IMG/VR virus record: IMGVR_UViG_3300006868_000092
Location: 1 to 25,814 of that record
Reading direction: 5' to 3' (one strand)
From: a virus
Lineage: Duplodnaviria > Caudoviricetes
DNA: 25,814 bases
Each line of letters begins with the position of its first letter. The stretch's first letter is position 1. A program made the translations under genes and the position numbers. Below are positions 5,606 to 25,814 of this stretch, piece after piece. The notes beneath the pieces are model-generated. The model did no database searches, had not been told where the DNA came from, and was given only the letters and a program-made list of their open reading frames with translations.

Positions 5606-5759
5606 TTAATTTTTGTTGGTATCTTTCTCTAAATCGTATTTGTATTTCCTCTTCCGTAATTACGTGAGATCCGAAAGCCATAGTATCCATAAATCTTTCG
5701 TTTCCGATCTCAATTGTGATTTCCTTTAATGCTTCCTTGTATGCTTCTTCTTCGGTCAA
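5565..5759 (-). CDS. Hypothetical protein
   Basis: ATGA-coupled to the initiator gene; overlaps the primase start. Confidence 0.6.
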   Translation of the reverse strand: MTEEEAYKEALKEITIEIGNERFMDTMAFGSHVITEEEIQIRFRERYQQKLNDKHRSTERTNES

Positions 5760-6439
5760 AATGTAATCTCCCCATTCTTTTGTGATTTGAAATCTCTGGC
5801 ACGATCAAGTTCACCAGTCCAATTATTCAAAAGTGTCTGCACATCTTTTCGTTTATATTCACAGTCCGATGTGTAGTAGCTTTCCATCTCATCTATGGTT
5901 TCCTGAATTAGATCCTTATTATCATTATATTTATCAAACTCGTTTTTACTCCATTTTGTTTCGGGTTTTCTATTGAACCAAGATCCTATAGTAATCATAT
6001 AATTATCCATTACCATTACCTTACCTTTACCTTTACCTTTACCTTTACCTGTGCCCCTAAATAGGGGCTGATTAGACCCTAAATTATCAATTAACCCTGC
6101 ATAATCTTTATGTTTAGAATTTATGAGAGAAATTATTTGTTTGTGAGCATTGTTATCTGGATTAAGTTTGCCATTTTTTTGATGCCTAAGAAAATTCTTA
6201 ACCCATAATTTCCCTTCTTTACTAGACCCTATATAGCCCCTGTTTAGCCCCTCAATAGCCCCTAAATACTTTTCCTCATCTATGCCTAATTCAAAACAAG
6301 CTTTCCTCATTGGCATTTCATAAAAACCAGCATTATCGCATTTGTCTAAGATATAAAACCATACAAGCTTTTCGCAGGGTTTTAATTCAAAGAACCATTC
6401 ATCGTCCCATTTGTCGGTGTTAGTGAATCTATAACTCAT
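5756..6439 (-). CDS. Phage replication initiator (replisome organizer / lambda O-like)
   Basis: N-terminal RFT.TDKW.D.WF..L....KL.W.Y..D.CD.AG winged helix; GKGKGKGK low-complexity linker; internal iterons; probable ATG at 6439. Confidence 0.8.
   Translation of the reverse strand: MSYRFTNTDKWDDEWFFELKPCEKLVWFYILDKCDNAGFYEMPMRKACFELGIDEEKYLGAIEGLNRGYIGSSKEGKLWVKNFLRHQKNGKLNPDNNAHKQIISLINSKHKDYAGLIDNLGSNQPLFRGTGKGKGKGKGKVMVMDNYMITIGSWFNRKPETKWSKNEFDKYNDNKDLIQETIDEMESYYTSDCEYKRKDVQTLLNNWTGELDRARDFKSQKNGEITF
6010..6050 (+). repeat. Tandem hexamer (TTTACC)n encoding the GKGK linker
   Basis: cattaccattaccttacctttacctttacctttacctttacct. Confidence 0.8.
6053..6268. repeat. Putative replication origin iterons TAG(A/C)CCCT
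   Basis: Four copies at 6223, 6234, 6245 and 6256 (11-bp period); further copies at 6053-6084, including an inverted TAGGGGC. Confidence 0.7.
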
Positions 6440-6582
6440 AATTAATTCAATCAATGAATACTATTTTCCTTTTGTCGAGTAATTTCTTATTTTATTTTAA
6501 CACTTATGTAATATTGAAATAATATTGAAATAAATTTAATTTAATTTGACTATGGCCTTAATATGATTTTGTTTAGGTGCGT
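6440..6582. promoter_or_regulatory. AT-rich divergent control region with tandem TAATATTGAAA x2 (6509-6530)
   Basis: Lies between divergent operons; perfect 11-bp tandem repeat; TTGAAA and TTGACT -35-like hexamers. Confidence 0.6.
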
Positions 6583-6744
6583 ATGAAAAAAACAACAGCA
6601 ACAGTTTATCTGCCAGTGCAGCTAAAAGAAAAGGCACAAGAGTTTGCAAAGAAAAACTTTATAAGCCTGAACGGTCTAGTAAGCAAAGCACTAACAGAAT
6701 ATATTAATAACAATGAGCGACCAAGAAACACAACTGACTCCTGA
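6583..6744 (+). CDS. Arc/CopG-like ribbon-helix-helix regulator (53 aa); not in ORF track
   Basis: MKKTTATVYLPVQLKEKAQEFAKKNFISLNGLVSKALTEYI is a typical RHH pattern; AGGTG RBS. Confidence 0.8.
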   Translation: MKKTTATVYLPVQLKEKAQEFAKKNFISLNGLVSKALTEYINNNERPRNTTDS

Positions 6745-7411
6745 ACCAATCCAAGAAGTAGACTTGCAACAGTCTGTTTCAGGATTCGCATCGGCCCAAG
6801 GATTTGAGCTTATGCAGCGACAAGCTAAATGCCTGAGTGCATCTACGCTAGTTCCTAAACAATTCCAAGGTAACCTTCCTGACTGCATTATTGCGCTCGA
6901 GATGGCACAACGACTTGGAGCTTCACCATTTGCGGTAATGCAACAACTCTATATTGTGCATGGGAAACCAAGCTGGAGTTCACAATTCATTATTTCAGCT
7001 GTCAATGCATCGGGTAAATTTACACCTCTGCAATTCCGGATGGAAGGTGAAGGAGAAACCAGATCCTGCGTAGCTCACTGTATAGATAAGCTTACCGGGG
7101 AAAGACTAGAAAGCCCGGAGGTTTCCATTAAAATGGCTAAAGCCGAAGGATGGTCAACCAAGTCCGGATCAAAATGGAAAACGATGCCTGACTTAATGTT
7201 GCGTTATCGCGCAGCAACATTCTTCGGAAGATTGTATGCTCCAGAGATTCTACTCGGCATGCAAAGCAAGGAAGAAATTATAGATGTAGATACCGGGAAA
7301 ACCTCAATGAAGGTTGCATCTCCTGCAGCTGAATCATTCATGGGAATTGAACCAGAGAAAAAACCAGAACCAGAAACAACAGAAGATAAAGAAGAAGATT
7401 GGACAGAATAA
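6713..7411 (+). CDS. RecT/Red-beta-like single-strand annealing protein
   Basis: S.LVP..FQGN..DC.IALEMA.RLG.SP..VMQ.LY.VHGKP.WSS; AKAEGW....SKW.TMP..ML.YRAA.FF.R.YAPE...GM. Confidence 0.85.
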   Translation: MSDQETQLTPEPIQEVDLQQSVSGFASAQGFELMQRQAKCLSASTLVPKQFQGNLPDCIIALEMAQRLGASPFAVMQQLYIVHGKPSWSSQFIISAVNASGKFTPLQFRMEGEGETRSCVAHCIDKLTGERLESPEVSIKMAKAEGWSTKSGSKWKTMPDLMLRYRAATFFGRLYAPEILLGMQSKEEIIDVDTGKTSMKVASPAAESFMGIEPEKKPEPETTEDKEEDWTE

Positions 7412-7412
7412 G

Positions 7413-8477
7413 ATGAGCGACGAGAGAAAAGGATTACCATCCGCATCAGAAGCATACCGTTGGATAAATTGTCCCGGTAGCTTTAAAATGCCTAAGAAAC
7501 AAGATGAACCCGGTGAAGCTGCTAAGCGTGGAACTGCCATGCATGACTACTTCGAAACAGGTAACTTCGGTGACCTAAATAAAGAAGAAATTGCAATTGT
7601 TGATAAAGCAAATGATATTATCGCAGAGTTTATCGAAGAAACCTTCCGGGGAAAACCAACAAAGATTATCAGAGAAGAACGCTGGTTCTATAAAAATGGT
7701 GCTGGAAACGAAATATTCTCCGGAAAAGCAGACGTTATCTACATATTCGACAGAACTGCACTGATCGTTGACCTTAAAACCGGGATGGGTGAAGTTGAGT
7801 CAGCTGATAAAAATAGACAACTACAAGCACTGACCATACTTTTGCAACAGAAATACCCAAACGTTTCAGAAGTTTACACCATGCTCGTTCATCCAGCAGT
7901 ATTTGGCGACCTATATAGTGTGGCCCGATATTCTCTAGATGATATCGGAACACTGAAAATGATCATACCAACTGCAGCTTGGAGAGCAAACCAAGAGCAT
8001 CAACCAAAAATGGTCGGGGAACAATGTAGGTATTGTAAGTCATATGACTATTGCGATGCTCCAAAAGTCCAAGCACTACTTGTTCCAGACAATAACCAAT
8101 TGACCATAACCCCGGAGCTACTAGGGAGGATTAAGGATGCCGAAACATTATTAAAAAAGCTTAAGGATGAATCACATAAGAAAGCCATCCAAATGCTTGA
8201 AAATAATAGTGACGCAATACCGGGATGGAAATTAAGAGCCGGAAGAAAGACTCAAACGGTTACGGATCCACAAGAAGCTTGCAGAGTTATGATGAAGGAA
8301 GGTCTTGATCCAGAACAGTTTAGCTTATGTTGTGCAGTAAGTATCCCTAAATTAGCAGATACCTACAAAGCAAATAATCCGGAGGTTAACAAAGTAAACG
8401 CTCGGAGAAAGGTAGAAGGATTACTTAGCGAGGTAATCGAAGAAAGAGTATCATCACCAATATTAGCAAAGAAATAA
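7413..8477 (+). CDS. DUF2800-like PD-(D/E)XK (Cas4-like) exonuclease
   Basis: SAS...RW..CPGS, A..GT..H, FSGKAD, IVDLKTG, QL, G.QCRYC....C, GWKL; probable ATG at 7413. Confidence 0.85.
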   Translation: MSDERKGLPSASEAYRWINCPGSFKMPKKQDEPGEAAKRGTAMHDYFETGNFGDLNKEEIAIVDKANDIIAEFIEETFRGKPTKIIREERWFYKNGAGNEIFSGKADVIYIFDRTALIVDLKTGMGEVESADKNRQLQALTILLQQKYPNVSEVYTMLVHPAVFGDLYSVARYSLDDIGTLKMIIPTAAWRANQEHQPKMVGEQCRYCKSYDYCDAPKVQALLVPDNNQLTITPELLGRIKDAETLLKKLKDESHKKAIQMLENNSDAIPGWKLRAGRKTQTVTDPQEACRVMMKEGLDPEQFSLCCAVSIPKLADTYKANNPEVNKVNARRKVEGLLSEVIEERVSSPILAKK

Positions 8478-8478
8478 T

Positions 8479-8712
8479 ATGGAAGATTCAATTATTAACA
8501 AACCACGTAAATTCTGGATAGTAATTAGAGGTAATGGAAAAACAGGTCAAATCCACTTCAAAGAAAAAAACGCAACCCAAGAAGCGGAGCATATCGCCAC
8601 GACAGAAAGAGTCATTGCCTATGTCATGGAGGCGGATTATGCGTTTGAGCCAGAAACAAAAGTAAACCGCCATTTCCTAATCAACGAAAACTTGAATAAT
8701 GATTGCGATTAA
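8479..8712 (+). CDS. Hypothetical protein
   Basis: ORF in the operon between the nuclease and RusA. Confidence 0.65.
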   Translation: MEDSIINKPRKFWIVIRGNGKTGQIHFKEKNATQEAEHIATTERVIAYVMEADYAFEPETKVNRHFLINENLNNDCD

Positions 8713-9181
8713 AAACGGAAATAAGGACAGAATAGAGTTTGTGGTTACGGGAGATCCGAAGCCACAACCTAGAGCTAGAGCATTTAAAATGGGCAATTCC
8801 GCAAGGATGTATGACCCCGGAACTGCAGACGGATGGAAACAATTAATAGCCAATGAATTAAAGGCTGTATTTAATGACTTTCCAGAAGCTTCACAGTTGC
8901 CCCAAGGTGGCCCCGTTCAAGTAATAGTGGATTACTACATTAAAAGACCCAAAGGACACTACAGAACGGGCAAGAATGCGGACTTAATCAAAGAAAGTGC
9001 TCCTGAATTTCCGGCAGGCAAACCAGACCTTGATAATCTTAACAAAGCGGTTTATGATGTTATCACTCAAACACAGCTAGTCTGGAAAGATGATTCACAA
9101 ATTGTTATTGAACACTCCACCAAGAATTACGCTTACGGTTTTCAAAAGGCCGGAGCTCACATTACTATCGAATGGCTTTGA
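8699..9181 (+). CDS. rusA: RusA-like Holliday junction resolvase
   Basis: G.PKPQPRAR, KPDLDNL.KAV.D and W.DDSQIV catalytic motifs. Confidence 0.9.
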   Translation: MIAIKNGNKDRIEFVVTGDPKPQPRARAFKMGNSARMYDPGTADGWKQLIANELKAVFNDFPEASQLPQGGPVQVIVDYYIKRPKGHYRTGKNADLIKESAPEFPAGKPDLDNLNKAVYDVITQTQLVWKDDSQIVIEHSTKNYAYGFQKAGAHITIEWL

Positions 9182-10969: not shown

Positions 10970-11385
10970 TAGCTGATTTCCTTCACAACCCTGTCAATCT
11001 CTTTGCTTACGTTGTGTTTACTTGCAAGTTTTGATACCTTATCTTTAACTGCTTTAGCAAGCTCCTTGCCTTCATCTGACTCCGCAATCTTTTCTATTGC
11101 GATTGCAGCAACCTTAACAGCAGTTTTAGCTTTCCTTCGCTTAACTTCCAATCCCGCAGCAAGCATAGTGCTAAATAAACCATATGCTAACCCACCAAAA
11201 GGAACACTTTCAGCAATAGGTTTTGTAACATTGATAGCTCCCTTGACCACTGGGTTAAGTTCCACTGATTCATCCACATCAACTGTAGTAGGATCATCTA
11301 CACCACTATTAGTATAGAGAACTTTTTCTACTGTTTTACAGCCAGTAAGTGATAACAATATAGTAATTAATATTAATTTTTTCAT
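10969..11385 (-). CDS. Lipoprotein with a second hydrophobic segment (lysis/spanin candidate)
   Basis: MKKLILITILLSLTG-C lipobox; internal VPFGGLAYGLFSTMLAAGL followed by KRRK. Confidence 0.65.
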   Translation of the reverse strand: MKKLILITILLSLTGCKTVEKVLYTNSGVDDPTTVDVDESVELNPVVKGAINVTKPIAESVPFGGLAYGLFSTMLAAGLEVKRRKAKTAVKVAAIAIEKIAESDEGKELAKAVKDKVSKLASKHNVSKEIDRVVKEIS

Positions 11386-14300
11386 AATCCTACCTCTTCT
11401 ACCATTGCAGATACTACTGCATTACGTTCACTTGTGCTTAATAGTTTAGTCCAAATTGCTGCATTAGCAGTAGCACCCTCCCAAACGTCAGAACCACCAT
11501 AAGTAAGATTTGACACAGTTCCAGTGTGTAAATCAGCACCTAAAGATGCACTCTCGTTCTCGTCCAGCAATGTTCCAGACGTATTATAGATCCAGTGTTT
11601 AAGGGTCTGACTTGTTTTGTTAAATTGACCAACAAATAGATACCATGTATCATCTGTAATAGTATACTGTGCTGTGCTAGTGACATTAGTACCATCAGGA
11701 GTTGCCGACATTTGAAATCCAGTAGTACCATACCTGATGCCCCATACTTTGTCTCCTGCACTACCCCATTGCCCTATTGCGAATTTATAAGTCCCTGAAG
11801 ATGTAGAATACCATTTTAGCCATAGTGCAACAGTTATATCTGTATTTTCCCAGTTATAACCAGCTTGACGAAGATTTTGTGTTCCATCTTCCCAAAAATG
11901 GTTAATAGATGGGTCTGTTCCTATTCCGTTTTCTACTGCCAATGGCTGATTGGCTATTGTTGATTGACTAAAATCATAATTATTACCAGACAGGTCTAAC
12001 CATTCGTTCACTGCTTCTTGGTTAGCTATATTTCCTGTTACTACACCACCTACTGCATTAGATGAATCTATGCCGTTTTCTGTGAGGTCTAGCGAGGTTT
12101 CTCTAGCAGGTCCAACTGTAGGAGATCCGTTGACTGTGAGGTTTCTGTCTACCCCGTCAACAATGTCATCTTCTGTAAGATTAGTTGGAGTAAGGTCATT
12201 GCCACTTGTGTGGGCATCGCCCCAACGGTCAGCATCATCGTTGAAATCATAGTGTGAAATTAAGTTTGTATCTAAACTTTCGCCAGATAAATCACTGTAA
12301 TGAAAAGGAATACCTCCATTATATAGACCTGAGAAGTATGTATCATCAACCGCAGAAGAATATAGATTTAATTGATCTATAACACCGTCTAATTGGTTAA
12401 ATGAACTGTGCGGAGTGCCTATTTCTATTGTATCATTAGAATCACCCATTGCAGTATATGACCCTACGTGATTGCTTGTGACAGTTTGCTTAACCCCATC
12501 AATAAAAATAGAAATACCACCGTCAGTATCACCAGTGTTGCCTGTATATTTTGCCCCAATATGATACCATTGCCCTGTTGAAATACTGCTCGTTATATCA
12601 GTTCTATACCTATGTATGCCTGAAGCATCAAAAGGAGAAGACTGCAAACCTAAAGCCAAGTAAGGAGTTCCACCTATCCCTTGCTGATAAAAAACCCATT
12701 GCCAAGGGAAAGACCCACTAGCTGATTGCATAACCATTATATTCTGATGTGAACTAGTAGTTATTGTATCAAACTTTATCCAACATGATATAGAAAAAGG
12801 CAAGTCACCTCCCACATCGTAAAAATCAAAATCAGTTGCCCCAGTTAAAGTAAGTCCCTTATTAGTGTGTATATCAACCGCATCATTAAGACTCCTAGAA
12901 GCATCCAACCCTAGACCCCTTGGATCAAGGACGCTGTTCTCAAAGTCATACCATGAGATGAGGTTGGCGGTTGAGCCTGTGTAGTCGGATAGTGTTGCGT
13001 CTTTACCAAGATTATATAAGGTTTCAATTTCAGAAGATGCACCCCCTGTCAACTCTTTGTCCCATATTGATAAATTATACGCATCACCCCTGAAAGGCGT
13101 ATTAACCCCCCAACCGATGTAATTATCTTTATCACCTAAAAATAGCTTACTAGTGGCGGGGCTATTCATAGCAGTATATGAACCAGATAAAGAGTCCGTT
13201 CCACTTTGAGCGACATTATCAATATACATACTAAGATCACCGCTAGTTCTATTGCCATTATAAACAAAAACAAAATGATAAACATCAGTTAAGTTTAGTG
13301 ATGAAATATTTACTATCTTTTGTATGTAGGCAGAATTATCAACATCCGAAACTCTCCAAATAATTTCCGATAATACATTGGTTCCAATTCTCCATTGTAA
13401 ATCAGATGAACTTGACCCATAGCCAATCCAAGGGACTGAAGCAAGTTGATCTAATTTAGCCCAAAAAGAAACGGTGAAAGCAGGCTCATTACCAGTAGTT
13501 CCATCTGCTCCAAAAGAAAAAGCATCTGATGTAATATTTAACTCAGCCCCCGATACATTCATTCCTGCATACTGCGTTCTCGCATCCTTAACCCCGCCAA
13601 CAAGATCCGCTTCTGCTATTGAATTAGGAGTCAGGTGGTTGAGATTAGTGTGGCTATCCTGACCTATGATCGTGTTGTCCTGCTCGTTAAAGTCCCAGTG
13701 TGATACTAGGTTGGTATCTAGTCCTGCTAAAACTAACTCATCGTAGTTGAGTGGTACTCCGCTGTTGTAGAGTGAGTTGATTGTGGAGGCTGAGAGTTCT
13801 GCGTTGTAGATATTAACCTGATCTACTTTGCAGATTGGCTTAAAACTATTGCCTCCAATAAAGAAATCACCGCTACTAGAAATAGAGTCAATAGCATCTA
13901 AAGTGTCCTCTGTTGGCGTGTGAGAAATATTAACACCATTAACATAGAAGTTTATTCCTGTTCCGGCATGTGTGCCATCGTAACTTATTGCTAAGTGAAA
14001 CCATTCATCCAAGGGTAGAGTGTTTGCATCATCTGTAGTTGTTAATAGCCTATTTGATCCATCACTTATCAACCAGAAGCGCATCCTGTTTGTTCCTGAG
14101 AAATCAAACATCGTATTCCAACCCGCAGTAGAACCAGATTCGGTATTCCCTATAAAATATTCTTGTCCAGAATTTGAACTATCTACATAAACCCATGACG
14201 TATAAGTAAAAGAGTCTGTAGTGTCAAAATTAACATCACCAGAATCCGCATTGGCTATTGTGAAATTCCCTGTTCCTCCCAACGAAACCGCATGAGTCTC

Positions 14301-15059
14301 TTGGCTACTCTCACGACCAAAGTTTCTTGGGGAGTCAAAATCATACCACGCAGCTATAGATGAGTAGAATGTCTCGCTGCCCGTAAGATCACGATGTTTG
14401 ATCCCTGTGCCTGAGTTGTAGAGTTCTGTTACTTCAGTTTGGGTCAATACTTTACTATGATAAACTAATTGATCTATAGCACCTAACAATGGATATGTTG
14501 GTGTTCCCGATCTATTATGTGTATAAAATGGATTAGAAATTGTTGTGGCGCTTGGATCACTAATAGCAGAATAATCACCGTCCTGTGACACGTCCAATGT
14601 CTGTAAATCTCCATCGACATATAAGGTTATCTGCTTAGCTGTATGGTCAAATGTAGCGACACCGAAATGATAAGTGCCAGCTCCTGTTGTAATGTTGGCA
14701 GTATCGCTTTGAGCATTAGCACCAGTAGCGTTTTGGAAGAATCTAGCTTTTAATTTATTGGTGCTTACCTCAAAATAAACATAGCCACCAGTTCCTTCCC
14801 TAGCAACAATAGCACCAGATGTTCCGCTATTTCTCTTAAACCAACATGAGATAGAGAAACTGGATTGAATTAATTCATCATCCTTTGTTGCGCTCGTTCC
14901 TTCAAGCCTCCTAGTTCCAGTAGCATCATCAACCGCCAACTTACCATTGACCCCTGTATCAGTGCGCCAGTAACCCCACAGGCTATCTATGTCAAGTATG
15001 CCTATGCTTTTAGCCCATTGCTTAAATCGGCAACAGGCTGAAACAATTGATCCAAACAT
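11382..15059 (-). CDS. Multi-LamG/concanavalin-A-like domain virion adhesin or receptor-binding protein
   Basis: Five repeats of FS.S.W..., W.H....Y, G.ID...., LYN.G, W.DF motifs. Confidence 0.85.
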   Translation of the reverse strand: MFGSIVSACCRFKQWAKSIGILDIDSLWGYWRTDTGVNGKLAVDDATGTRRLEGTSATKDDELIQSSFSISCWFKRNSGTSGAIVAREGTGGYVYFEVSTNKLKARFFQNATGANAQSDTANITTGAGTYHFGVATFDHTAKQITLYVDGDLQTLDVSQDGDYSAISDPSATTISNPFYTHNRSGTPTYPLLGAIDQLVYHSKVLTQTEVTELYNSGTGIKHRDLTGSETFYSSIAAWYDFDSPRNFGRESSQETHAVSLGGTGNFTIANADSGDVNFDTTDSFTYTSWVYVDSSNSGQEYFIGNTESGSTAGWNTMFDFSGTNRMRFWLISDGSNRLLTTTDDANTLPLDEWFHLAISYDGTHAGTGINFYVNGVNISHTPTEDTLDAIDSISSSGDFFIGGNSFKPICKVDQVNIYNAELSASTINSLYNSGVPLNYDELVLAGLDTNLVSHWDFNEQDNTIIGQDSHTNLNHLTPNSIAEADLVGGVKDARTQYAGMNVSGAELNITSDAFSFGADGTTGNEPAFTVSFWAKLDQLASVPWIGYGSSSSDLQWRIGTNVLSEIIWRVSDVDNSAYIQKIVNISSLNLTDVYHFVFVYNGNRTSGDLSMYIDNVAQSGTDSLSGSYTAMNSPATSKLFLGDKDNYIGWGVNTPFRGDAYNLSIWDKELTGGASSEIETLYNLGKDATLSDYTGSTANLISWYDFENSVLDPRGLGLDASRSLNDAVDIHTNKGLTLTGATDFDFYDVGGDLPFSISCWIKFDTITTSSHQNIMVMQSASGSFPWQWVFYQQGIGGTPYLALGLQSSPFDASGIHRYRTDITSSISTGQWYHIGAKYTGNTGDTDGGISIFIDGVKQTVTSNHVGSYTAMGDSNDTIEIGTPHSSFNQLDGVIDQLNLYSSAVDDTYFSGLYNGGIPFHYSDLSGESLDTNLISHYDFNDDADRWGDAHTSGNDLTPTNLTEDDIVDGVDRNLTVNGSPTVGPARETSLDLTENGIDSSNAVGGVVTGNIANQEAVNEWLDLSGNNYDFSQSTIANQPLAVENGIGTDPSINHFWEDGTQNLRQAGYNWENTDITVALWLKWYSTSSGTYKFAIGQWGSAGDKVWGIRYGTTGFQMSATPDGTNVTSTAQYTITDDTWYLFVGQFNKTSQTLKHWIYNTSGTLLDENESASLGADLHTGTVSNLTYGGSDVWEGATANAAIWTKLLSTSERNAVVSAMVEEVGL

Positions 15060-16277: not shown

Positions 16278-16910
16278 TTAAAACTGAACACCCTGAGCTA
16301 TAGCATCAAAGGAATCTAACCCGCTAAGGTCATCTCTCACAATGAAGCTCATTCTGTCGTTTGTTCCTTTTCGCAATCTTATTCCCCAAGGCTTACCAAA
16401 TTGCTCGGATATATCAATGATTGGTAGGTATGCTTTGCTTGTTCCACCACCTGAAACGTCAGCTAAATACGCCTCTGTTCCAGTTCCGATCGCATGGGTT
16501 TTGTGACCTGTTCTTACAAACTCAAGATTAGTTTGGATTCCCTCGTGAAGTATTACCGTCCCAAGATCAGAAGTTACCCACTCCCAACCAACTCCGTTAG
16601 TCAATGCCGTTAAGTCTCCGAATTTATTAAGGTTTGGAGAACCACCATCTGCTATGCGAACACTGATAGAGTTCACATAAATATCGTAATCAGCAATGGC
16701 ACGAAGGCTAAATATAACCTCAGTTGTAGAGCCATCAACAGCCATTGCGGATGAACCCGCATCATCGGTAAATCTAGCCCGATAAGGTAGCGATGTTTCG
16801 TTTTCCTCCCTTGGAGGGTGAGGGTGGACTACTGTATATAGCGCACCCTCATCATCAACGTTAAGTCGATTGCCATTGCCATGACCGCTAACTATACGTG
16901 CATCAATCAT
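16278..16910 (-). CDS. Putative virion protein, paralog C
   Basis: Shares the I.xG.G.G....VD N-terminal motif with the two upstream genes. Confidence 0.7.
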   Translation of the reverse strand: MIDARIVSGHGNGNRLNVDDEGALYTVVHPHPPREENETSLPYRARFTDDAGSSAMAVDGSTTEVIFSLRAIADYDIYVNSISVRIADGGSPNLNKFGDLTALTNGVGWEWVTSDLGTVILHEGIQTNLEFVRTGHKTHAIGTGTEAYLADVSGGGTSKAYLPIIDISEQFGKPWGIRLRKGTNDRMSFIVRDDLSGLDSFDAIAQGVQF

Positions 16911-17506
16911 ATTCCAGTGATGTCAGAAGCTAATATATAACCTGTCGCTGCGATCTTTATAGATTGAGAGGTATTCCCTGTTGGCGGTGTCCATGTTACT
17001 CCCAAAGAATTACCTTTTTTCAAAACAATAGGAGCTGCATCAAAAGAGATAACTGTTCCAAATGAACTTCTGGTTGTGTTTGCGAACTCACTTCCACCAG
17101 TCAAGGTATTGCCTTCTGCTCCCTTATACGTAACACCGTCTACTGATTTTGATGATGCGAAGTTTCTATTTGCCTTAGTGTCAATATCTACAGCACCACT
17201 AACAATAGTGCCTCCAGTTGGATTTGATATAATCTTAGCTGTTCCATCTCCAGAGCCTCCTGTTGTTGTTCCTAAGATAAATAAAATCTCGGTAATAACA
17301 AAAGGGTCATCCCCTTCGTATCCTAAATAACCCACAGCACTTTCACTGGCACTCGTTAATGTAATTGTTCCAGTGTTAAAATTGAAAGCATCTCCTTTAA
17401 TTGCAGCCTCTGCAAGTAAGTCTCTTCCTACTGACTCAACGTGTACTCTATTATTACTATCGACTTGAGCTTGATAGCCACCGCCTGATCCATCTGTTAT
17501 AATCAT
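16907..17506 (-). CDS. Putative virion protein, paralog B
   Basis: G/S/T-rich beta protein, similar to 17509..18084. Confidence 0.75.
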   Translation of the reverse strand: MIITDGSGGGYQAQVDSNNRVHVESVGRDLLAEAAIKGDAFNFNTGTITLTSASESAVGYLGYEGDDPFVITEILFILGTTTGGSGDGTAKIISNPTGGTIVSGAVDIDTKANRNFASSKSVDGVTYKGAEGNTLTGGSEFANTTRSSFGTVISFDAAPIVLKKGNSLGVTWTPPTGNTSQSIKIAATGYILASDITGI

Positions 17507-17508
17507 AA

Positions 17509-18084
17509 TTATTCCTCTCCTTCAAACCAACATTGAATTTCAGCACAGAATGTAAGTGCTACACTGGGCTTTGCTACTAGCGCAAGACTAGATGATTTCG
17601 GTAAAATGATAGCACCCTCGTATTCTTGAATCGAATGACCGGGACTGTGGTTAATAAACTGTGATTCATTCGTCCCATCAGTTACAGTTTTGCCATCACC
17701 GCTTGCAGTATAGGCAAATCCGCCAAAAGCCTCATTTGATCCAAAGTTAGATGGTAACTGGTCTGCATCATTGGCATCGCTAATCAGCGTTCCTGTCGAT
17801 GGGTTTCTGATTAGTCTACACTGAACATTGCCAGAAGTATCGGAACAAGTTCTGATTTTACCGATATACAAATCAAGGTCACTTGTATTCTCAAGGTAGA
17901 TAATGCCGTTAAAACTAGCTGTTGTAGTCAAAGAAATAAAGTCAGAGGCAATTAAAAAAGCCTGACCTTCTCTTTTGCTTATATCGCTAACCCTACTTTG
18001 AGATACTGATTTCACTAAGGCTCTATTTAAAGAGTCTACCCCTGCGGAGTATCCCTTACCTCTTCCATCCTGTATTACATTCAT
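17509..18084 (-). CDS. Putative virion protein, paralog A
   Basis: IQDGRGKGYSAGVDSLNR N-terminus; NP..GTL.S.A and NF.S shared with paralog B. Confidence 0.75.
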   Translation of the reverse strand: MNVIQDGRGKGYSAGVDSLNRALVKSVSQSRVSDISKREGQAFLIASDFISLTTTASFNGIIYLENTSDLDLYIGKIRTCSDTSGNVQCRLIRNPSTGTLISDANDADQLPSNFGSNEAFGGFAYTASGDGKTVTDGTNESQFINHSPGHSIQEYEGAIILPKSSSLALVAKPSVALTFCAEIQCWFEGEE

Positions 18085-18251: not shown

Positions 18252-19801
18252 TTTAAATTCCAATCCGTTCCGTTATAGACTATATTAAATGCCTCTCCAT
18301 CATATATAGATGGTGTAGCTGTTCCATTAATTGTCAAATTAACAGTATTCGTTCCACCAGAATTATTTACGATGACTACATTAGAACCTGTTATAAACCC
18401 TGAAAGACTTGTAGTAATACCAGAAGCAGTTTGAGTTATGTGCGTAATAGAACTTGATATGGTCTTTGTCTCAGTGGTGCTAGTGGTCTGGTAGTCAAAC
18501 TCTCCTGCTGCTGCGCTATCTGCATAATCAACTGTAGCTACTGCTAAGGGTGTGCCTCCCGTAGGCGAAGCTGATAACGTGAACCCATCTGCGGGTATGG
18601 TGAATAGTGCAGTTGTCGCATCTATATCTATATCATCAGTTCCCGCCTCATATTTCAACCAGTTGCCAGATGTTAATTTTCTGAATATAAAGTCCACATC
18701 ATGGTAAGCATCATTGAACTTTATCTGCGTATCATTAGCCTCTATCAGTTCATAATCTGCTGTTTCTGTAATGCTGATTATATTCCTACCCAAAGTGTCA
18801 TTTCTGATCTGGAAATCAAGACTACTGTTCTGTCTAACCTCCCATCTCTGAGAAGTATTCCATAGCTGCAAAGCAACCTCTTGATCTACTGCATTAGTGC
18901 TTTCGATTCGGAACTGTAAAATATTAGCATCGTCATGGCTAAAATGAAATTCGGTGTTAGGACTGCAACCCCAACCATGCCTATCATTTCCTGCGTTGTA
19001 AAAGTATGCATTAGTCTCAGCTTCAGAAGATTGCTTATACCAACGCATATCAACGTCAAATCTACCGTTATTGAATAAATATCTGGTAGTATTCCAAGTC
19101 ACCTCATTCACTGATCTGTTGTAGTTGAATGACATGGAATTAACTTGACCACCACTATAGCTACCAAATACTACGGTATCACTAGAGTTATTAACTCGGA
19201 TAAAATTCTCTCGATCACCCACAGAATTAATTACATCGTAGTCAATAAATTCTGCATTAGCCAATCCGTTATTTTGGTAGTTAACAACAAACTTATTATT
19301 GTTTACATAAAACTCGTTTGTTTTAATTATGGTGTCGTTGGAATTGACCTCTATAGCATCTGTGCCACCAGCATTCAGATTCCATTGGTTAGTCTGAAAC
19401 CGCATATATGTGTCAAGGTCACCATCATGGTAGATGTATTCAGCTACATTAAGATCAGATTGTAATGTCAGCGCACCACTCATGGTATCACCTGTGACAT
19501 TAACATAGTCATTCTCTATATCCGCAAGCGTTGTGCCACTAGATATTACATTACCACTTGCGTCTACAGTTAGCAGTTCATCTAAAGTGAGCGTTGGGAT
19601 AATTAGATTACCAGATGTGATCTCTATATCTCCAACGGTCACATACAAAGAACCTGTAGATAGAGTTAAATCGCCAGCAGTAAGCTCTAACCCTAACTGC
19701 ACCGGAATAACGCTACCCTTGCGCACCACCCACATAATGTCGGTGGCTTCTGCGCCTGTAGAGATATTCTTTAGGTGTAGCCTGTTTCCGTAGCTGCTCA
19801 T
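18248..19801 (-). CDS. Tail fibre-like protein
   Basis: YVNVTGDTMSGAL and YIYHDGDLDTYMRF fibre-type motifs; beta-rich; follows the main fibre gene. Confidence 0.7.
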   Translation of the reverse strand: MSSYGNRLHLKNISTGAEATDIMWVVRKGSVIPVQLGLELTAGDLTLSTGSLYVTVGDIEITSGNLIIPTLTLDELLTVDASGNVISSGTTLADIENDYVNVTGDTMSGALTLQSDLNVAEYIYHDGDLDTYMRFQTNQWNLNAGGTDAIEVNSNDTIIKTNEFYVNNNKFVVNYQNNGLANAEFIDYDVINSVGDRENFIRVNNSSDTVVFGSYSGGQVNSMSFNYNRSVNEVTWNTTRYLFNNGRFDVDMRWYKQSSEAETNAYFYNAGNDRHGWGCSPNTEFHFSHDDANILQFRIESTNAVDQEVALQLWNTSQRWEVRQNSSLDFQIRNDTLGRNIISITETADYELIEANDTQIKFNDAYHDVDFIFRKLTSGNWLKYEAGTDDIDIDATTALFTIPADGFTLSASPTGGTPLAVATVDYADSAAAGEFDYQTTSTTETKTISSSITHITQTASGITTSLSGFITGSNVVIVNNSGGTNTVNLTINGTATPSIYDGEAFNIVYNGTDWNLK

Positions 19802-21318
19802 TAGAACTTGATGCCAACCATGCAGATTATATTGTTTGGTCTTGTTTCTGCGTCACCATTTAAACCGTGAGTATGTGAACCATCGGAGCTTGTTGCAAAC
19901 TGTCCTGCGTTTAAAGCACCTGTGTTTACGGAAATTTGGTGAGTATGTGGGTCTGGACCGTTAGCACTATCAGTAAACATGTTTGCTGATACAGCATCAT
20001 AAGTGCCACCACTTCCTGTAGATACCCCCGGAAGGTCACTATCCCCAAGGTAATCATGGTCGTGTGCACCATCGCTAACAGTTGCTAACCCATTTGCCGC
20101 AGTAGTGTCAAGTTGAGTATTCCCAATAACTGTAACACCATCTGTTGATCTACGGAATCTACCATCTGTCTCTAAGTCTGGAAGATCAAATGTAGTAGAA
20201 CCATCTCCTACACCGTATGTAGTTCCCAATACACCAAATAAATCTGCATATTTAGTTCTACTAACTGCCTGTCCGTTACAGCGTAGGTATCCAATATCAT
20301 CTTCAACTGAGCTAATGTCATATGCAAAGTCTTGGTAAGTTCCTACTAGTCCTGCTGCTGCCTGTGCTGCACTTGAACTACCATCAAAGTAAACCGTTGT
20401 TCCATCACTGGTAAATGCAAGTGAAGAGAATCCGTTACTATCAGTGTTAAGTGCCACTGCTGCGGTGTTTCCAAACCCTGTATTAAATGTAATTGTGCGA
20501 CCACCTGTTACATCTTGATTCACGAGAAGCTTATATACACCCGGCTTAATATTGATTACATTAAGCGTAGGATCTCCCGATAGATTTAATGTAGCTATGT
20601 GCCCAAGTGAGCTATCCCAATTGATTGTAGCCCCATATACAAGGGTTTGAGATAAGAATAAGCTCTCTGATATGTTATTGCTTTGCTCTAATGCTCCTTG
20701 GGTTGCTGAATAAATAGCAAGATTACCCTCAACTTGTGAAGCTGGCCCTGTCATTCCTCCTACATTATCAGCATCTAAGTCAACCGCTTCCCATTCTCCA
20801 TTCGCATCCCAACCAGCTAGTTTACTTAATCGATCATTATAGGCCGGGAGTTTATTGCTTACCCCACTTGGCTCATTATCTGGATACTGAATATTTAAAT
20901 TAGATACGCTTCCGGGTGTTACTCCTTCTCGAGTCAATTGGCAAATTTGAGTTAACTTATCACCCATGTTCTCATTTAACTGAGAATTATACCTACCGAC
21001 CTTTATGAAATCAATCAACTGAGTTAATGGAATGTCTAATGTCATAAACAAATCCCAAGGCCCACTATCGTAAGTAGTCCAATCAGTTATATTATTAGCT
21101 GTCTCGTAAAGACTTACGGATACTTGCGCTCCTGCATCTTCTCCAACATCAGTTACCGTATAGTCAACCCCATCGGTTAAAGTAACCGTCTGTTGGTCGC
21201 TTTGCCTAATCACTTTTACAACTAAGTGAGTAGAATCAAGGACTTTGAACTCGGTAGTATGAGTAGCCCCGATTGTAGTTAGATTTATATTTGTTCTTAT
21301 ATCTTCTGTATTAATCAT
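19801..21318 (-). CDS. Tail fibre with T7-gp17-like N-terminal anchor and phage tail-collar domain
   Basis: N-terminal F.V....L.V...L..GVDYTV...Q..D....DKLT.I.Q; collar YLRCNGQAVSRTKYADLF.VLGTTYG.GDGSTTF.LPDL; H.H repeats; ETRPNNI. Confidence 0.88.
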   Translation of the reverse strand: MINTEDIRTNINLTTIGATHTTEFKVLDSTHLVVKVIRQSDQQTVTLTDGVDYTVTDVGEDAGAQVSVSLYETANNITDWTTYDSGPWDLFMTLDIPLTQLIDFIKVGRYNSQLNENMGDKLTQICQLTREGVTPGSVSNLNIQYPDNEPSGVSNKLPAYNDRLSKLAGWDANGEWEAVDLDADNVGGMTGPASQVEGNLAIYSATQGALEQSNNISESLFLSQTLVYGATINWDSSLGHIATLNLSGDPTLNVINIKPGVYKLLVNQDVTGGRTITFNTGFGNTAAVALNTDSNGFSSLAFTSDGTTVYFDGSSSAAQAAAGLVGTYQDFAYDISSVEDDIGYLRCNGQAVSRTKYADLFGVLGTTYGVGDGSTTFDLPDLETDGRFRRSTDGVTVIGNTQLDTTAANGLATVSDGAHDHDYLGDSDLPGVSTGSGGTYDAVSANMFTDSANGPDPHTHQISVNTGALNAGQFATSSDGSHTHGLNGDAETRPNNIICMVGIKF

Positions 21319-21321
21319 AGC

Positions 21322-24300
21322 TTACCCATCAATTAAGAATGTTTCAAAGTAATCGTTTAAATTTATTGCACCATCTTGTTTTTGTCTACCCATTCTTTCC
21401 AAGTATCGTTCTTGTTGTTCTAGTTTATCGTGGTCTAATAGGTCAAACAAGAATGGCCATAAGGTTCTATCTAGCACCGCTTTAGCTGCAAAGTGATTAA
21501 TAAATGGTGTCCAGTTCTTTGCTTTATCTAATACGTCACCTGCGAAATCTTCATTTTCTGGATCCACTGCTTGTTTAGCCAATCTCTTTACATCTTCGAT
21601 CATGCCAAGTGCTGGACTAGATAATGTTTGTTGACTTTCTCCGAAAATGAAATCTGCCATTAATCCCATTGCACCACCCCTTAAGAATGCTTCAGTCCAT
21701 GTCTTACCGCTATTTATAGGGTGCATACTTTCACCTCGCAACATAGCTAATACATTCATCGCCATATATTGCATAACCGTAGTAAATGCAGCAGTCCAGA
21801 TTAGTAGTGTAACTCCACTGGATCCACCCTTAATGTCTTTCATAAATACTTTATTGAAAGCAGTTAACGGAAATGACTTATACATAGTGAACATTTTAAG
21901 AATACTATTCTGCCAAGTTCCCTCTCTGGTATTAAATGTAAATGATAGCTTTTCTCTAAGACCGGGAGTCAATACTGCTTCATCCATCTTAAATCTCATG
22001 AATGCTGTCAGTGAAGAAATAGCCTCTTCTTTAAGTCGCAATCTTTGTTGTGCTGTTTTAACACCGGGGAACATCGCATCTGCATCAGCACCCTCTAGTG
22101 AATCAAGAGTTACATAAGTTTTACCATCTTGAGTTTTGGATCCAAAGTTTCTTATTGCGTTCCAAGATTCCTCTTTAATTCCTAGTATTTCAAAATCTTT
22201 TGCAACTTCAGGAGCATTCGCTTTTAACCAAGCCATGTCGTGTTGACTGTATTCTCCAAGTCTGCGGACAACCATTAAACTTGCTGCATCTCTCCATATC
22301 TTATTCCAGCCAGTAATTCCGGTAGACTTAAACCAATGGGTTTGCATTCTTGCCATTTTGCTAGATTGACCGATATCATCCGGGTCAAATCTATTACTTG
22401 ACATCATGGTTATTTGCATTGACTCAATGTCACCTAATACACCACGCAATACCATCTTACCTTTATCGGTCTTGGCATCAACTGCAGCACCAAATGATTC
22501 GAACAACGCTGGTAATATATCATTACCTCCCCTACCAAGTCTTGCAACTGCTCTAGCACCAAAAGCAGGGTCTGACATAGATGAAATAAGGATATTACCC
22601 ATCTTTGTCATATTAATAAAAATCTTAGTGTTAGCTATGATCTTAGACCATGTGTAATTTTCAGGAGTTGCATTGGCTCCCTCTAGCTCGTCAAAGGCTG
22701 AATTTACTACACGTTTTAGTTTATTCAGCTTCTCATTTGCTTTAAGTTGACCGCTTTTACTTGCTACATCTGCTACCATTGCAATCAATCCATCGTTCAT
22801 TACCTCCCGGTAAGCTGGACCAAACTTGCGAACTAATGATGCAATATTATTCAAGTGGACAATTTCACCAAAAAATTGATCAGATAATGAAGAGCTACGA
22901 GTATCAGAGTGATATTTACCAGCAGTCTCACCGTCTTTAAAGTGATATAACCTAGATGCTGCTTGTCTCTCTGCTGCATTTGCATGATAAAAGCTTTTCT
23001 CTCCCCTAGCACTATCGGCCCTTGTGTGAATCCCGGTAAAGATACCATCAAAGGCACCATCCAATGAAGCTAGTATTTTAGGATCTTGACGGTGATCTGG
23101 ATACAACGCTGAATCACCGATACCACGATCATAGAAACTCTTTTGAATATCCAAGTCCTCAAGCATCCGGGCTTTCCATTTCCCTTGTAATTCGGAGAAT
23201 GCTTGCTTGTTTAGCTTCTTACCTTTCGCAGTCCACTCATATAGCTTAATGTCAAAAAAGTCTGCTATTGCCTCAATATTGTGTGCTTGCCCAATGATTC
23301 TTGTTTTAGATACCGGAATAAATCCACCATGACGGTTAATTTCACGCACTAGATTATGTGAATACTTCTGAAGAATCTTAGCTGCTGCTTGTGCTTTTGG
23401 GTCAGCTGCTTCACCGTATCCAGCCTTAATTATTTCTAAATCATTGTTTCCACTTGCAAAATAATCCAATACACCAGCATCTTCCATCTCGTCTGAGATT
23501 TTCTTCATGTGACGTGCAGTAGTTCCACGAGACTCGTAATCAATCTCGTCATACAGTATATTGGTTAAAATCTTAGTGCTATCATCTAGGCTTACTGTAG
23601 CCAAGCTGTAATCTCTAATGATCTCCCCTATTTTCAACTGGGTCATTAGTTTAGCACGTTTCCTTAGAACACGCTTTGTATCCCCGGTAACGGCATCATA
23701 ATGCATTGCAATAGGGTTTATATCCTTATCGTCTTTGAAGGATATGCGCTCTACTGCTTTTGCTATTTTGGAAAGAGAAAATCTTATATCTTTACTATAT
23801 TTATTAAATCTAACACTTAATGGTATTATATTTCCCTTATTATCTTTAGTTATAGGTTTTGCAGATTTAATTTGTTCTGGAGAAAAAACAACATATAAAG
23901 CAGGATTTTCTGGAGCATCTCCAAATTGATTTTCATTTTCAAGATATAGTATTATTGAATCAAAATCCCTTTCAGCTCCAGTTGGCTTTCCATCTTTATC
24001 AATTACTCCTTCTTCTAATAATATTCTATTTAATGTAGCATCAAAATTTTCAACACCAGAAAAAGTCATAGACTCTTCTATTGGGTTTTCCATTTTTAAA
24101 TATACTGGCATAGTTTCTTTGCCGAAATTTTTAGCAAATCCTTCTATGTCAGTAAAAAAGTGAGCATCTTTTAGGTTGTTTGCTACTTCTGGAAAATTAC
24201 TTCTACCTCCTTTGTCGAATACCGTAAATTTATTGTCTGTTCCATGGTATAATACTTTAGGAAGGAACCCGGCTTTTTTTGCTGCTTCATTAACGATTTT

Positions 24301-25814
24301 TTGAGCAGTTTCCATATCGCCAGAATCTATTGCTTTTTTATAAGCAGAATCAATAGAAGATAACTTTACATCAGCCCCTTCAAACTTATCCCTTCCTCTA
24401 TCAGCTGTTGCTTTAAGTGAACGTAGACTGAAGGACTTTCCGACATTAACGCTGACAGTATCCTTCGCTTCTGTTTCAACGGGATATCTGCTTTCGGTAA
24501 GTCCGATATCTCTAGCGGTTTGCTCTGTAATAGGTCCAAGTCCTCGTCTTTCAGGATCTTTTCTCCAGTTGTATCCGCTATAACTAGACTCTTTTTCCAC
24601 TCCTCCACTTGTAATTTCTCTGCCATAACTTATTCCTACGTAATCATCATCATATTGATTTCCAGTTGCTCTCTTAAATGACCTGAAATCATCAAGTCGA
24701 GTTGCCATTGTTTCCATATTAGCATCTGCCTTGTATTGACCAAAGGATTCACCTTTAACTGCACCAGATAAAGAAGGAAGAGAGTTGTTGTATAAAACAC
24801 TATTACCTAAAGACTTAGCGTAGTCAAATATCTTGTGTGTTCTTTTATAGAAATCATTTTCACGTAACCATTTATCAACTTTAACCATTTCTCCATCAAC
24901 TGGAACTTCACCACGACCATAGGCTGTAGTCATAATGTATGGTGGGTCCATAACTACAAAGTTATTATTTCCTTTTATTAGCTTATGGTAATCTTTAGAT
25001 GAATCATAAGCTCTCCATTCTACCTTGCCACCTTTATTGATAAACTTTTTATAATTTTGATGTAATTCATCTGCTTTTTCTATTGTTTTTCTTATTACAT
25101 CAGTAGATCGACCTTTCCTGTCACCTTGATCAAGTAACGCTCTAATAGCCATCTTTTCTTCATAACTAAACTTATATTCTTTTTTTAATACTTTTTCTAC
25201 TAAGTTTTGGTTATGCTTTCTATTCTTCCAATTTTTACTTCCTTCTTTGACATCAATTTTATTGAAATTTGCACCTTTTTCATAAACATGCTGAAGTAAT
25301 GTTTGTATAGCAGTAAACTCGCCTTTGATTCCATTTTTTGACTCTATTAATTCAAGCAATGGTTTTAATTTTTCTCCATTTAATCCTTTTTTTAAAAATT
25401 TAGAACCATGCATCATGTGCTGTTTTATTTTTCCAACTCTATCTGGCTCAAAATCATTAAAAATAAGTCTTTTGAATTTATTGGTATTTGCAGCCATCCA
25501 TAAACCATAACCACCGGAACCACCAAACATATCAACTATTGTGTCGGTTTCTTCTGGTAGATCATCAATCCATTTTAAAAGAGTTCCACCAACTTTCTCT
25601 ATAAATGATTTTTTATTTCCTTGATAAACTGGAAATCCTATTACATTTCCATTATAAGCATCGGCATTTGTTGTAATTGAATTATTAGCAATCCTATATA
25701 ATCTATCTAAATAAAAAGATGCATCTTTTTGCTGCTTGGCAACTTCCTTATTACTAATATCAGTGCTACCATCCTCATAGGTGTCCTCAGACTTATATTC
25801 AAACTTTTCTTGGT
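21322..25814 (-). CDS. Giant internal virion/ejection polyvalent protein (5'-truncated): Dam-like MTase + ART-PolyVal-like domain + helical ejection core
   Basis: Frame stays open from 25530 to the window edge (translated by hand). MTase motifs FPVYQGNKK, VDMFGGSGG, ND and MDPPY; ART motifs YHGT, FFT, YL...NP and YVVFSPEQIKS; C-terminal core (EAVLTPG, GTW, YKSFP, GGA.G...D, TPF.N) directly upstream of the tail fibre. Confidence 0.85.
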   Translation of the reverse strand, partial: QEKFEYKSEDTYEDGSTDISNKEVAKQQKDASFYLDRLYRIANNSITTNADAYNGNVIGFPVYQGNKKSFIEKVGGTLLKWIDDLPEETDTIVDMFGGSGGYGLWMAANTNKFKRLIFNDFEPDRVGKIKQHMMHGSKFLKKGLNGEKLKPLLELIESKNGIKGEFTAIQTLLQHVYEKGANFNKIDVKEGSKNWKNRKHNQNLVEKVLKKEYKFSYEEKMAIRALLDQGDRKGRSTDVIRKTIEKADELHQNYKKFINKGGKVEWRAYDSSKDYHKLIKGNNNFVVMDPPYIMTTAYGRGEVPVDGEMVKVDKWLRENDFYKRTHKIFDYAKSLGNSVLYNNSLPSLSGAVKGESFGQYKADANMETMATRLDDFRSFKRATGNQYDDDYVGISYGREITSGGVEKESSYSGYNWRKDPERRGLGPITEQTARDIGLTESRYPVETEAKDTVSVNVGKSFSLRSLKATADRGRDKFEGADVKLSSIDSAYKKAIDSGDMETAQKIVNEAAKKAGFLPKVLYHGTDNKFTVFDKGGRSNFPEVANNLKDAHFFTDIEGFAKNFGKETMPVYLKMENPIEESMTFSGVENFDATLNRILLEEGVIDKDGKPTGAERDFDSIILYLENENQFGDAPENPALYVVFSPEQIKSAKPITKDNKGNIIPLSVRFNKYSKDIRFSLSKIAKAVERISFKDDKDINPIAMHYDAVTGDTKRVLRKRAKLMTQLKIGEIIRDYSLATVSLDDSTKILTNILYDEIDYESRGTTARHMKKISDEMEDAGVLDYFASGNNDLEIIKAGYGEAADPKAQAAAKILQKYSHNLVREINRHGGFIPVSKTRIIGQAHNIEAIADFFDIKLYEWTAKGKKLNKQAFSELQGKWKARMLEDLDIQKSFYDRGIGDSALYPDHRQDPKILASLDGAFDGIFTGIHTRADSARGEKSFYHANAAERQAASRLYHFKDGETAGKYHSDTRSSSLSDQFFGEIVHLNNIASLVRKFGPAYREVMNDGLIAMVADVASKSGQLKANEKLNKLKRVVNSAFDELEGANATPENYTWSKIIANTKIFINMTKMGNILISSMSDPAFGARAVARLGRGGNDILPALFESFGAAVDAKTDKGKMVLRGVLGDIESMQITMMSSNRFDPDDIGQSSKMARMQTHWFKSTGITGWNKIWRDAASLMVVRRLGEYSQHDMAWLKANAPEVAKDFEILGIKEESWNAIRNFGSKTQDGKTYVTLDSLEGADADAMFPGVKTAQQRLRLKEEAISSLTAFMRFKMDEAVLTPGLREKLSFTFNTREGTWQNSILKMFTMYKSFPLTAFNKVFMKDIKGGSSGVTLLIWTAAFTTVMQYMAMNVLAMLRGESMHPINSGKTWTEAFLRGGAMGLMADFIFGESQQTLSSPALGMIEDVKRLAKQAVDPENEDFAGDVLDKAKNWTPFINHFAAKAVLDRTLWPFLFDLLDHDKLEQQERYLERMGRQKQDGAINLNDYFETFLIDG

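Follow-up and report, generated by a model that had tools for sequence, protein, structure and literature searches.

A phage methylase that is produced only once the DNA is inside the cell cannot shield the infecting genome in time. Could a phage carry a methyltransferase in its virion and mark its DNA as it enters the cell? The question is raised by a gene at one end of a 25,814-nucleotide stretch of DNA from an uncultured, short-tailed virus of the class Caudoviricetes (IMG/VR record IMGVR_UViG_3300006868_000092, positions 1 to 25,814; "the window"). In the portions of the literature on which we draw here and throughout, no virion-borne methylase is demonstrated to write marks on entry, even for P1 DarB. 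An original prediction, made from the letters of the window, read the gene as a virion ejection protein fused to a Dam-like DNA methyltransferase and an ADP-ribosyltransferase (ART)-like module. Here, we describe the complete 2320-aa protein, which carries a predicted methyltransferase and an ART-like domain on a probable ejection core, and a clade of related methyltransferase domains. We then discuss where the enzyme might act.

A probable ejection protein with predicted enzymatic cargo

The open reading frame (ORF) at 21322..25812 on the minus strand is 1496 aa long and 5'-open at the window edge, as the original prediction (>1490 aa, open to the edge) had it. A start at the ATG at 25530, which that prediction also discounted, is ruled out: the codon encodes a methionine inside motif I of the methyltransferase. 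A search with the methyltransferase region returned a single protein of 2320 aa (P0003), residues 825–2320 of which are the window frame, letter for letter. Its cluster has seven members from three sources, with three other full-length copies that differ by one to three residues. The 43.6-kb metagenome contig L031 is identical to the window over a 2526-nt overlap and supplies the upstream DNA, and with it the missing 824 residues whose recovery had been suggested. In X17, which is not among the runs flagged as possible sources, a single contig covers 23374-25814 with 0 differences, bridging the core, the ART-like domain, and the methyltransferase. Because several sources, L031, and the X17 contig agree, the fusion is real, and an assembly artefact is ruled out. 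Among 24 runs listed, 18 contain at least half of the sampled words, all of them labelled as freshwater metagenomes; 14 are flagged as possible sources. Contigs from RNA libraries cover the ORF patchily and do not demonstrate transcription.

The original prediction likened the helical core to podovirus internal and ejection proteins, and profile searches agree. The family phrog_684 ("virion structural protein") matches aa 755-1478 of the window frame (1579-2302 of the full protein) with an E-value of 6e-82, and a profile of three cultured-phage homologues matches the core with E 9e-71. The core also matches 66 phage-collection records, most of which are internal virion proteins (IVPs) from epsilon15-like phages and pelagiphages, including those of phiV10, SPN1S, Ab31, and HTVC035P-type pelagiphages. 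According to Hardies et al., epsilon15 gp17 is a member of the T7 IVP-D family (PMC4819975). They place N4 gp50 in the same family; in that protein, the virion RNA polymerase precedes the IVP-D part (PMC4819975).

The gene also has the position expected of an ejection protein, as had been claimed. Tail A and tail B come first, followed by a gene of 202 aa, one for an IVP (phrog_418; IVP-B), a 739-aa gene, the 2320-aa gene, and the fibre. The 739-aa gene has no family match and is gp15-like by position only. The predicted "T7-type" fibre needs correction: the adjoining gene encodes a collar-domain fibre, with no Pfam T7-fibre match at E<=0.05. The 202-aa protein (L031:3831-4436, plus strand) lies at the usual IVP-A/acetyltransferase position and matches phrog_12032 and phrog_24280.

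Between the fibre and the gp15-like gene, SPN1S, Ab31, and HTVC035P each carry two genes, whereas the window phage has one. We call the products of these two genes gp16 and gp17, labels that presumably hold given the genus and the gene order of these three phages. The N-terminus of the 2320-aa protein has a weak pairwise match to Ab31 ORF15 (E 2e-5) and shares a motif with ORF15 and HTVC035P gp48. Among the gp16/gp17 genes of six loci (L001, L002, L003, L026, L029, and L030) and window 21322-25812, a terminal Cys ends 9/9 aligned gp16-position proteins and a Cys begins 6/6 gp17-position proteins, which points to a disulfide bond or another tether joining gp16 to gp17 in epsilon15-like phages. 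Cys is absent from the 2320-aa protein, as are both Cys-bearing segments. The protein is likely a gp16+gp17 fusion that replaces such a tether.

The methyltransferase, the ART-like module, and the helical core are in one frame, as predicted, the last two matching PF18760 and phrog_684, respectively; the methyltransferase had been placed at about 24630-25640. The ART domain has the expected His and the D-S/D-G Asp, but across 11 homologues the position preceding the final aromatic strand is variable. The N-terminal part of the protein has an HEXXXH-type motif (HEAVGH, aa 471) with a later EE; a zincin variant of this type has been described by Iyer et al. (PMC5512222). This zincin-like region has no Pfam match, returns only unnamed clusters in the Atlas, and matches the region of a similar motif in P0033 weakly (E 0.002). 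It may free the cargo. A single polypeptide thus combines disparate enzyme domains (methyltransferase and ART-PolyVal) with the core, and its gene lies among virion genes. No Pfam match to an SF2 helicase or LPD36 was seen in the protein at E<=1. By the features that sequence can test, it belongs both to the polyvalent proteins and to the epsilon15-type ejection proteins.

A predicted Dam-fold methyltransferase domain and its relatives

Motif X, motif I, and DPPY lie where the original prediction placed them, the last exactly at 24937-24948, and the acidic end of strand 2 is near 25455. As in alpha-class enzymes, motifs X, I, and II are followed by an insert and then by motif IV, which has the (D/N/S)PP(Y/F) form. 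An AlphaFold model, one of the checks proposed earlier, was built from a 20-row alignment (mean pLDDT 75.8) and shows a Rossmann core in which the segment inserted between motifs II and III is helical. With this model as query, Foldseek gives 26 PDB matches at E<=1e-3, the best 19 of which are all DpnM, T4Dam, EcoDam, or M.CbeI (E 2e-7 to 3e-5; TM-score by target 0.49-0.64). The nearest Atlas clusters are PF02086 (D12; 0.95), and PHROG 56 matches the domain with E 6.5e-7. The claim of an alpha-group (Dam/D12) amino-methyltransferase is thus borne out by motif order, predicted model, Foldseek, and Atlas clusters, and the fold class is predicted to be Dam-fold. The companion check with the MethyltransfD12 profile failed: PF02086 has no match to the window's domain itself. 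PDB sequence searches gave no Dam match, returning designed helical repeats and weak methyltransferases only.

The enzyme is not Dam itself, to judge by its sequence, and GATC specificity is unlikely, because the family profile aligns to EcoDam only in the region around motifs III-VI and the Dam hairpin pattern is absent. That pattern, with letters taken from L032, presumably has a role in GATC recognition; a loose form of it occurs in 2/51 family domains, the window's domain not among them. The model shows no hairpin in the insert, though the loop there has low confidence. A GATC-specific Dam was considered and is unsupported. The original prediction held that the long segment between motifs I and IV may give a non-GATC specificity, which is likely, with the hairpin absent and the insert predicted to be all-helical. 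The insert is basic over most of its length (29 K+R versus 17 D+E) and variable among close relatives. GATC counts are uninformative on GATC methylation (observed/expected 0.80 in this phage and 0.40-1.00 in 15 related loci). DPPY leaves the choice of base undecided, because M.CbeI, which is annotated D12 and has DPPY, makes N4-methylcytosine (PMC3425538); the product would be N6-methyladenine or, possibly, N4-methylcytosine.

Relatives of the domain are mostly parts of large proteins. A phmmer search of 1.84 billion representatives gave 32 matches, 31 of them non-self: 22 of at least 2000 aa, 7 of 700-1749 aa, and 2 short. Large carriers (700-4400 aa) therefore account for 29/31. In one locus set, the domain lies inside ORFs of at least 2063 aa at 9/9 loci; a further set of 13 loci repeats 7 of these. 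None of the 31 contains the gp17 core, as judged with its own profile. A Pfam scan of 20 relatives found ART-PolyVal in 6, ddrB-ParB in 4, and LPD38 in 3, with 3 above the D12 (PF02086) cut-off; domains neighbouring the family's methyltransferases include ART, ParB-like, and PRTase. A helicase-type match was found in 1/35 relatives scanned, some of them fragments, ~800 aa from the methyltransferase. Two giant relatives have additional domains. The 3947-aa protein at L015:3197-15037 (plus strand) has a second methyltransferase (phrog_757, aa 1989-2203) directly before the Dam-fold one. At L012:6647-20899 (plus strand), within a virus record of 110 kb, an open frame spanning 5972 aa combines a family methyltransferase with an SF2-type domain, LPD37, and LPD23.

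Carriers have virion neighbours at several loci. In a scan of the genes around L004, L006 to L010, and L012, tail tube B was upstream in L004, L008, and L009, a portal gene followed the L010 gene, and a structural gene preceded that of L012; L006 and L007 had no virion neighbour among the scanned genes. In L026, L029, and L030, the methyltransferase is inside the gene immediately before a separate gp17 gene. The N-termini of L030, P0039, P0045, and P0047 match SPN1S_0018 (E 8e-21 to 1e-6). In such gp16-type carriers, conserved gp16 parts, one N-terminal and one C-terminal, flank the methyltransferase; an HExxH-like motif occurs in 0/7 scanned. Relatives also occur in metagenome-assembled genomes of Verrucomicrobiota and Kiritimatiellota, which has little bearing on the host of the window phage.

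In a set of 51 distinct domains, which includes some that are nearly identical, DPPY is retained in 51/51, motif I in 50/51, and motif X in 48/51. In a tree from a quick search, with EcoDam on a long branch, gp16-type and giant carriers are intermixed in two clades; P0050 is called gp16-type solely by its terminal Cys. The window's domain, also a long branch, pairs with P0010, its closest relative (33% identity), a 369-aa protein on a 2074-bp contig that starts with Met and ends at the domain boundary. A word-index search for free-standing relatives (195-622 aa) found 0 among 1898 candidates, and scans of viral contigs with the single proteins P0002, P0004, and P0010 gave no match. L017, with a 39-residue match, was excluded when the profile gave no confirmation, and the alignment suggests that P0031 (314 aa) is a fragment produced by a frameshift.

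The distribution of the domain indicates that it has moved between scaffolds. P0039 and P0045 have methyltransferases that are 97% identical and first 330 residues that are 28% identical over the aligned part. In the window gene, GC content at third codon positions (GC3) is 0.19 for the methyltransferase and ART-like regions versus 0.31 for the core (p 1.4e-7), with 0.28-0.42 in 8 other genes. The ratio of non-synonymous to synonymous rates (dN/dS) is 0.37 for L008/L014; synonymous sites are saturated in 3 other distant pairs, and L005/L009, with 3 changes, is uninformative. Between L025 and L028, the methyltransferase has 14 non-synonymous and 2 synonymous changes, as against 122 and 114 upstream, and 12/15 residue differences fall within the recognition-position insert. 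These small numbers fit a recognition loop that is pressed to change. Of 5 close comparisons within the P0039 group, one (P0039/P0045) lacks this clustering in the insert. Domain swaps, low cargo GC3, and insert-focused changes can be read as signs of an arms race.

Table 1. Features of the gene and its surroundings; fold and domain names are assignments by prediction or homology.
Feature	Position	Strand	Basis or remark
3' part (residues 825-2320) of the 2320-aa polyvalent ejection-protein gene	21322..25812	-	Exact protein match
Missing 824 residues: gp16-like N-terminus, zincin-like HEAVGH motif (aa 471), charged linker	L031:7382 onward		
Alpha-class (Dam-fold) amino-methyltransferase domain, predicted, ~aa 883-1222 of full protein	24619..25638	-	Model pTM 0.80; DpnM/T4Dam/EcoDam top matches
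Motif X (G-N-K; Lys invariant in alignment A1)	25606..25638	-	
Motif I, S-adenosylmethionine-binding, D-x-F-G-G-x-G	25513..25533	-	
Insert at target-recognition position	25036..25446	-	Predicted helical; low-confidence Lys/Asn loop; no Dam hairpin motif
Catalytic motif IV, DPPY	24937..24948	-	
ART-PolyVal (ADP-ribosyltransferase-like) domain	23857..24261	-	PF18760, aa 518-652 of window frame, E 1e-15, above cut-off
Epsilon15 gp17-type (IVP-D) ejection-protein core, without the Cys-bearing N-terminal segment of free gp17	21379..23550	-	phrog_684, profile
Tail fibre with collar domain; closes ejection module	19801..21318	-	Downstream of 2320-aa gene

Elsewhere in the window, a 1225-aa protein with four LamG/concanavalin-like domains (11382-15059, minus strand) is probably a receptor-binding or decoration protein, and three small ORFs that look related lie at 16278-18084. 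A divergent replication/recombination module (3860-9181) has a DnaD-like loader and a primase-helicase on the minus strand, and RecT, an exonuclease, and RusA on the plus strand.

Where the methyltransferase might act

We put at about even the chance that, after ejection, the methyltransferase methylates the entering genome against restriction. The 2320-aa protein would be packaged in the head and then threaded out through the tail with the DNA, as we infer from homology and gene position. The gp16 and gp17 parts would anchor the protein during ejection, and the methyltransferase would refold on the cytoplasmic side, beside the emerging DNA; by analogy, the N4 virion RNA polymerase also precedes an IVP-D core. 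The enzyme would then mark a subset of non-GATC sites in cis, such that matching restriction systems spare the genome.

Embedding of the domain in large proteins (29/31) favors action on entry, because late methylation alone needs no tether. The ejection-type scaffold and gene position, the conserved catalytic motifs, the signs of an arms race, and a genome under restriction pressure (see below) also count in its favor. The same count of embedded domains bears on the main alternative, in which the enzyme works in the producer cell, on the portal during packaging or after release by the zincin-like domain, and virion DNA is already marked, as with Mom or Hia5, the ejection protein serving as an address for the enzyme. 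We consider this unlikely, while noting that the gene sits in a late structural operon, that neither refolding nor a race with restriction enzymes would be required, and that late Dam-related phage methyltransferases protecting against many restriction enzymes exist (the Hia5 family; PMC3299994). A free late gene would suffice for such a role, yet gp16-type carriers embed the enzyme between gp16 parts and show no HExxH-like motif, and the ART, ParB-like, and PRTase neighbours are interpreted as early-acting by Iyer et al. (PMC5512222). P0010 lends this alternative some support, since the closest relative of the window's domain may be a free-standing gene.

Patterns of restriction-site avoidance bear on how far any self-marking could reach. 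Sites were counted in window 1-25814 plus 9851 upstream bases (L031:1-9851). CCCGGG occurs 0 times versus 9 expected and CCATGG once versus 9; observed/expected ratios are milder for CATG (0.61), TCGA (0.71), and GATC (0.80). L007 likewise lacks GTAC and CCWGG, two of the sites most strongly avoided in the window phage (see below). The pattern indicates a phage that meets restriction systems and a genome under restriction pressure. Hia5 methylation blocked CviQI (GTAC) but not Csp6I (GTAC), Bsh1236I (CGCG), or Bme1390I (CCNGG) (PMC3299994). By analogy, the avoided sites could be those left unprotected by adenine methylation. Because Hia5 blocks some such cutters and not others, the pattern does not discriminate between a specific and a broad enzyme. 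As a separate observation, avoidance of GTAC, CCWGG, CGCG, CCCGGG, and CCATGG could aid host finding.

Next in rank, and rather improbable in our view, is the possibility that the delivered enzyme methylates host DNA, upsetting regulation that depends on methylation or the discrimination of self from non-self, or binds DNA or S-adenosylmethionine and so blocks type I, type III, or BREX systems with no need of a mark on the phage. The domains fused to the enzyme are predicted to be effectors aimed at the host, the zincin-like motif could set the enzyme free, self-marking is at best partial given the strong site avoidance, and P1 Dar protection has been reported without demonstrated methylation. 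On the other side, a decoy would not need the catalytic motif DPPY, which is kept in 51/51 domains, and a tether to the ejection machine puts the enzyme beside phage DNA. That the domain is a passenger, inserted in frame into a tolerant linker and of no role, is very improbable: atypical GC3 suggests a recent arrival and the window's domain is a long branch, yet every motif is intact, members of the family turn up in many unrelated scaffolds, and distant pairs are under purifying selection (measured in relatives, not in this phage).

Several observations weigh against methylation on entry. The genome strongly avoids GTAC (7 versus 93 expected), CCWGG (0 versus 31), and CGCG (3 versus 22), and therefore the methyltransferase gives no blanket cover. 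The gp16 match is weak (E 2e-5; phrog_3003, E 6.5e-4): a mixed gp16 profile scores 2.4 bits versus 5.4 for the best shuffle, and the N-terminus lacks the hydropathy peak >1.2 that 4/4 free gp16-type proteins scanned have. No cultured phage record matches the methyltransferase domain, and tblastn of cultured phages with two family domains gave no match for one and a best E of 0.5 for the other. P0010 may represent a free-standing gene or donor type, and the 14-versus-2 pattern in L025/L028 could reflect relaxed selection on the loop. Hardies et al. liken epsilon15 gp16 to IVP-C, and in T7 the periplasmic tunnel is formed by the IVP-C protein, gp15 (PMC8954989). Cargo in gp16 might therefore not face the cytoplasm. 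It is also doubtful, kinetically, whether a few refolding copies could race fast type II enzymes. Sidedness and kinetics are thus the weakest links in the case for marking on entry.

Extending that case to the whole clade is more tentative, and we would lean against it if pressed. The relatives would then form a dedicated, mobile family of "ejectosome methyltransferases": enzymes of the Dam fold, equipped with a helical recognition domain of their own and plugged into the ejection conduit by several short-tailed lineages, which mark the genome as it leaves the channel, before genes are read, and switch target through a hypervariable loop. The clade is a compact, helicase-free module of ~340 aa whose natural variants differ mainly in one loop, which makes the question of marking on entry directly testable. 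It may be a source of methyltransferases that recognize new sites, and it shows where the epsilon15-type gp16/gp17 chain naturally accepts cargo.

Relation to known systems

The polyvalent proteins of Iyer et al. (PMC5512222) are the broadest comparison. They are likewise large late-region proteins that combine a zincin-like HEXXXH motif, ART-PolyVal, and a DNA methyltransferase, and they are predicted to be injected. Most of their methyltransferases fall into a single gamma-class (NPPY/F) clade accompanied by LPD36 and an SF2 helicase, whereas the enzyme here is alpha-class with DPPY, and neither partner is matched. In the main text of that paper, "D12" is absent and "Dam" appears in one reference only. 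P1 DarB is a co-ejected virion protein with an adenine methyltransferase domain, and protects DNA in cis against type I systems (PMC5512222, PMC12810830). However, DarB has a gamma-class methyltransferase with a SWI2/SNF2 ATPase, and is head cargo of a myophage rather than part of a podophage ejection conduit (PMC5512222, PMC12810830). The window's enzyme would act as DarB does, on our hypothesis, but membership of the DarB type is ruled out by the alpha layout with DPPY, without gamma NPP(Y/F) and without an LPD36/SF2 helicase match.

A closer precedent is gp60 of Pseudomonas phage H66, an F116-like podophage (PMC4819975, PMC5217972, KC262634), and the idea of injection is thus less new than the original prediction implied. 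This IVP-D-type protein has an internal methyltransferase, and its record, KC262634, notes verification in the virion by mass spectrometry. Its NPPF lies ~57 residues after motif I (the gamma layout), it is unmatched by profile A1, and its scaffold is of a different lineage. The claim that precedents typically have other methyltransferase families plus a helicase therefore holds for H66 gp60 as to class, but not as to the helicase, for which there is no match.

Among enzymes of the same fold, Dam, DpnM, T4Dam, and M.CbeI (PF02086) share the motif order X-I-II-insert-IV and DPPY and are the best structural matches. The new domains differ from them in sequence (11-14% identity), in the absence of the Dam hairpin motif, in being fused, and in the spacing of motifs I and IV (161-211 in the family versus 146 in EcoDam). 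Hia5, Hin1523, and Nme1821 are non-specific phage methyltransferases related to Dam; their recognition region is divergent and they counteract restriction, but they are free-standing late genes of Mu-like prophages (PMC3299994); we liken them to the new family by their published description only.

The idea that polyvalent proteins bring methylases into the cell by injection has been published for a gamma-class, helicase-linked clade (PMC5512222). In the literature covered, largely open-access and at abstract level, our searches turned up no account of an alpha-class clade carried by ejection proteins. The predicted architecture, with an ejection protein, a Dam-family methyltransferase, and an ART-like domain on one chain, stands; the mobile clade and the likely gp16+gp17 fusion had been missed. 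The scaffold is closest to that of the Uetakevirus SPN1S (SPN1S_0018/0019), Ab31 (ORF15/16), and HTVC035P (gp48/47), with clear gp17 homology, weak gp16 homology, and the same gene position. In those phages, gp16 and gp17 are separate genes without enzymes, whereas here they appear fused, together with ~1200 aa of cargo and linkers.

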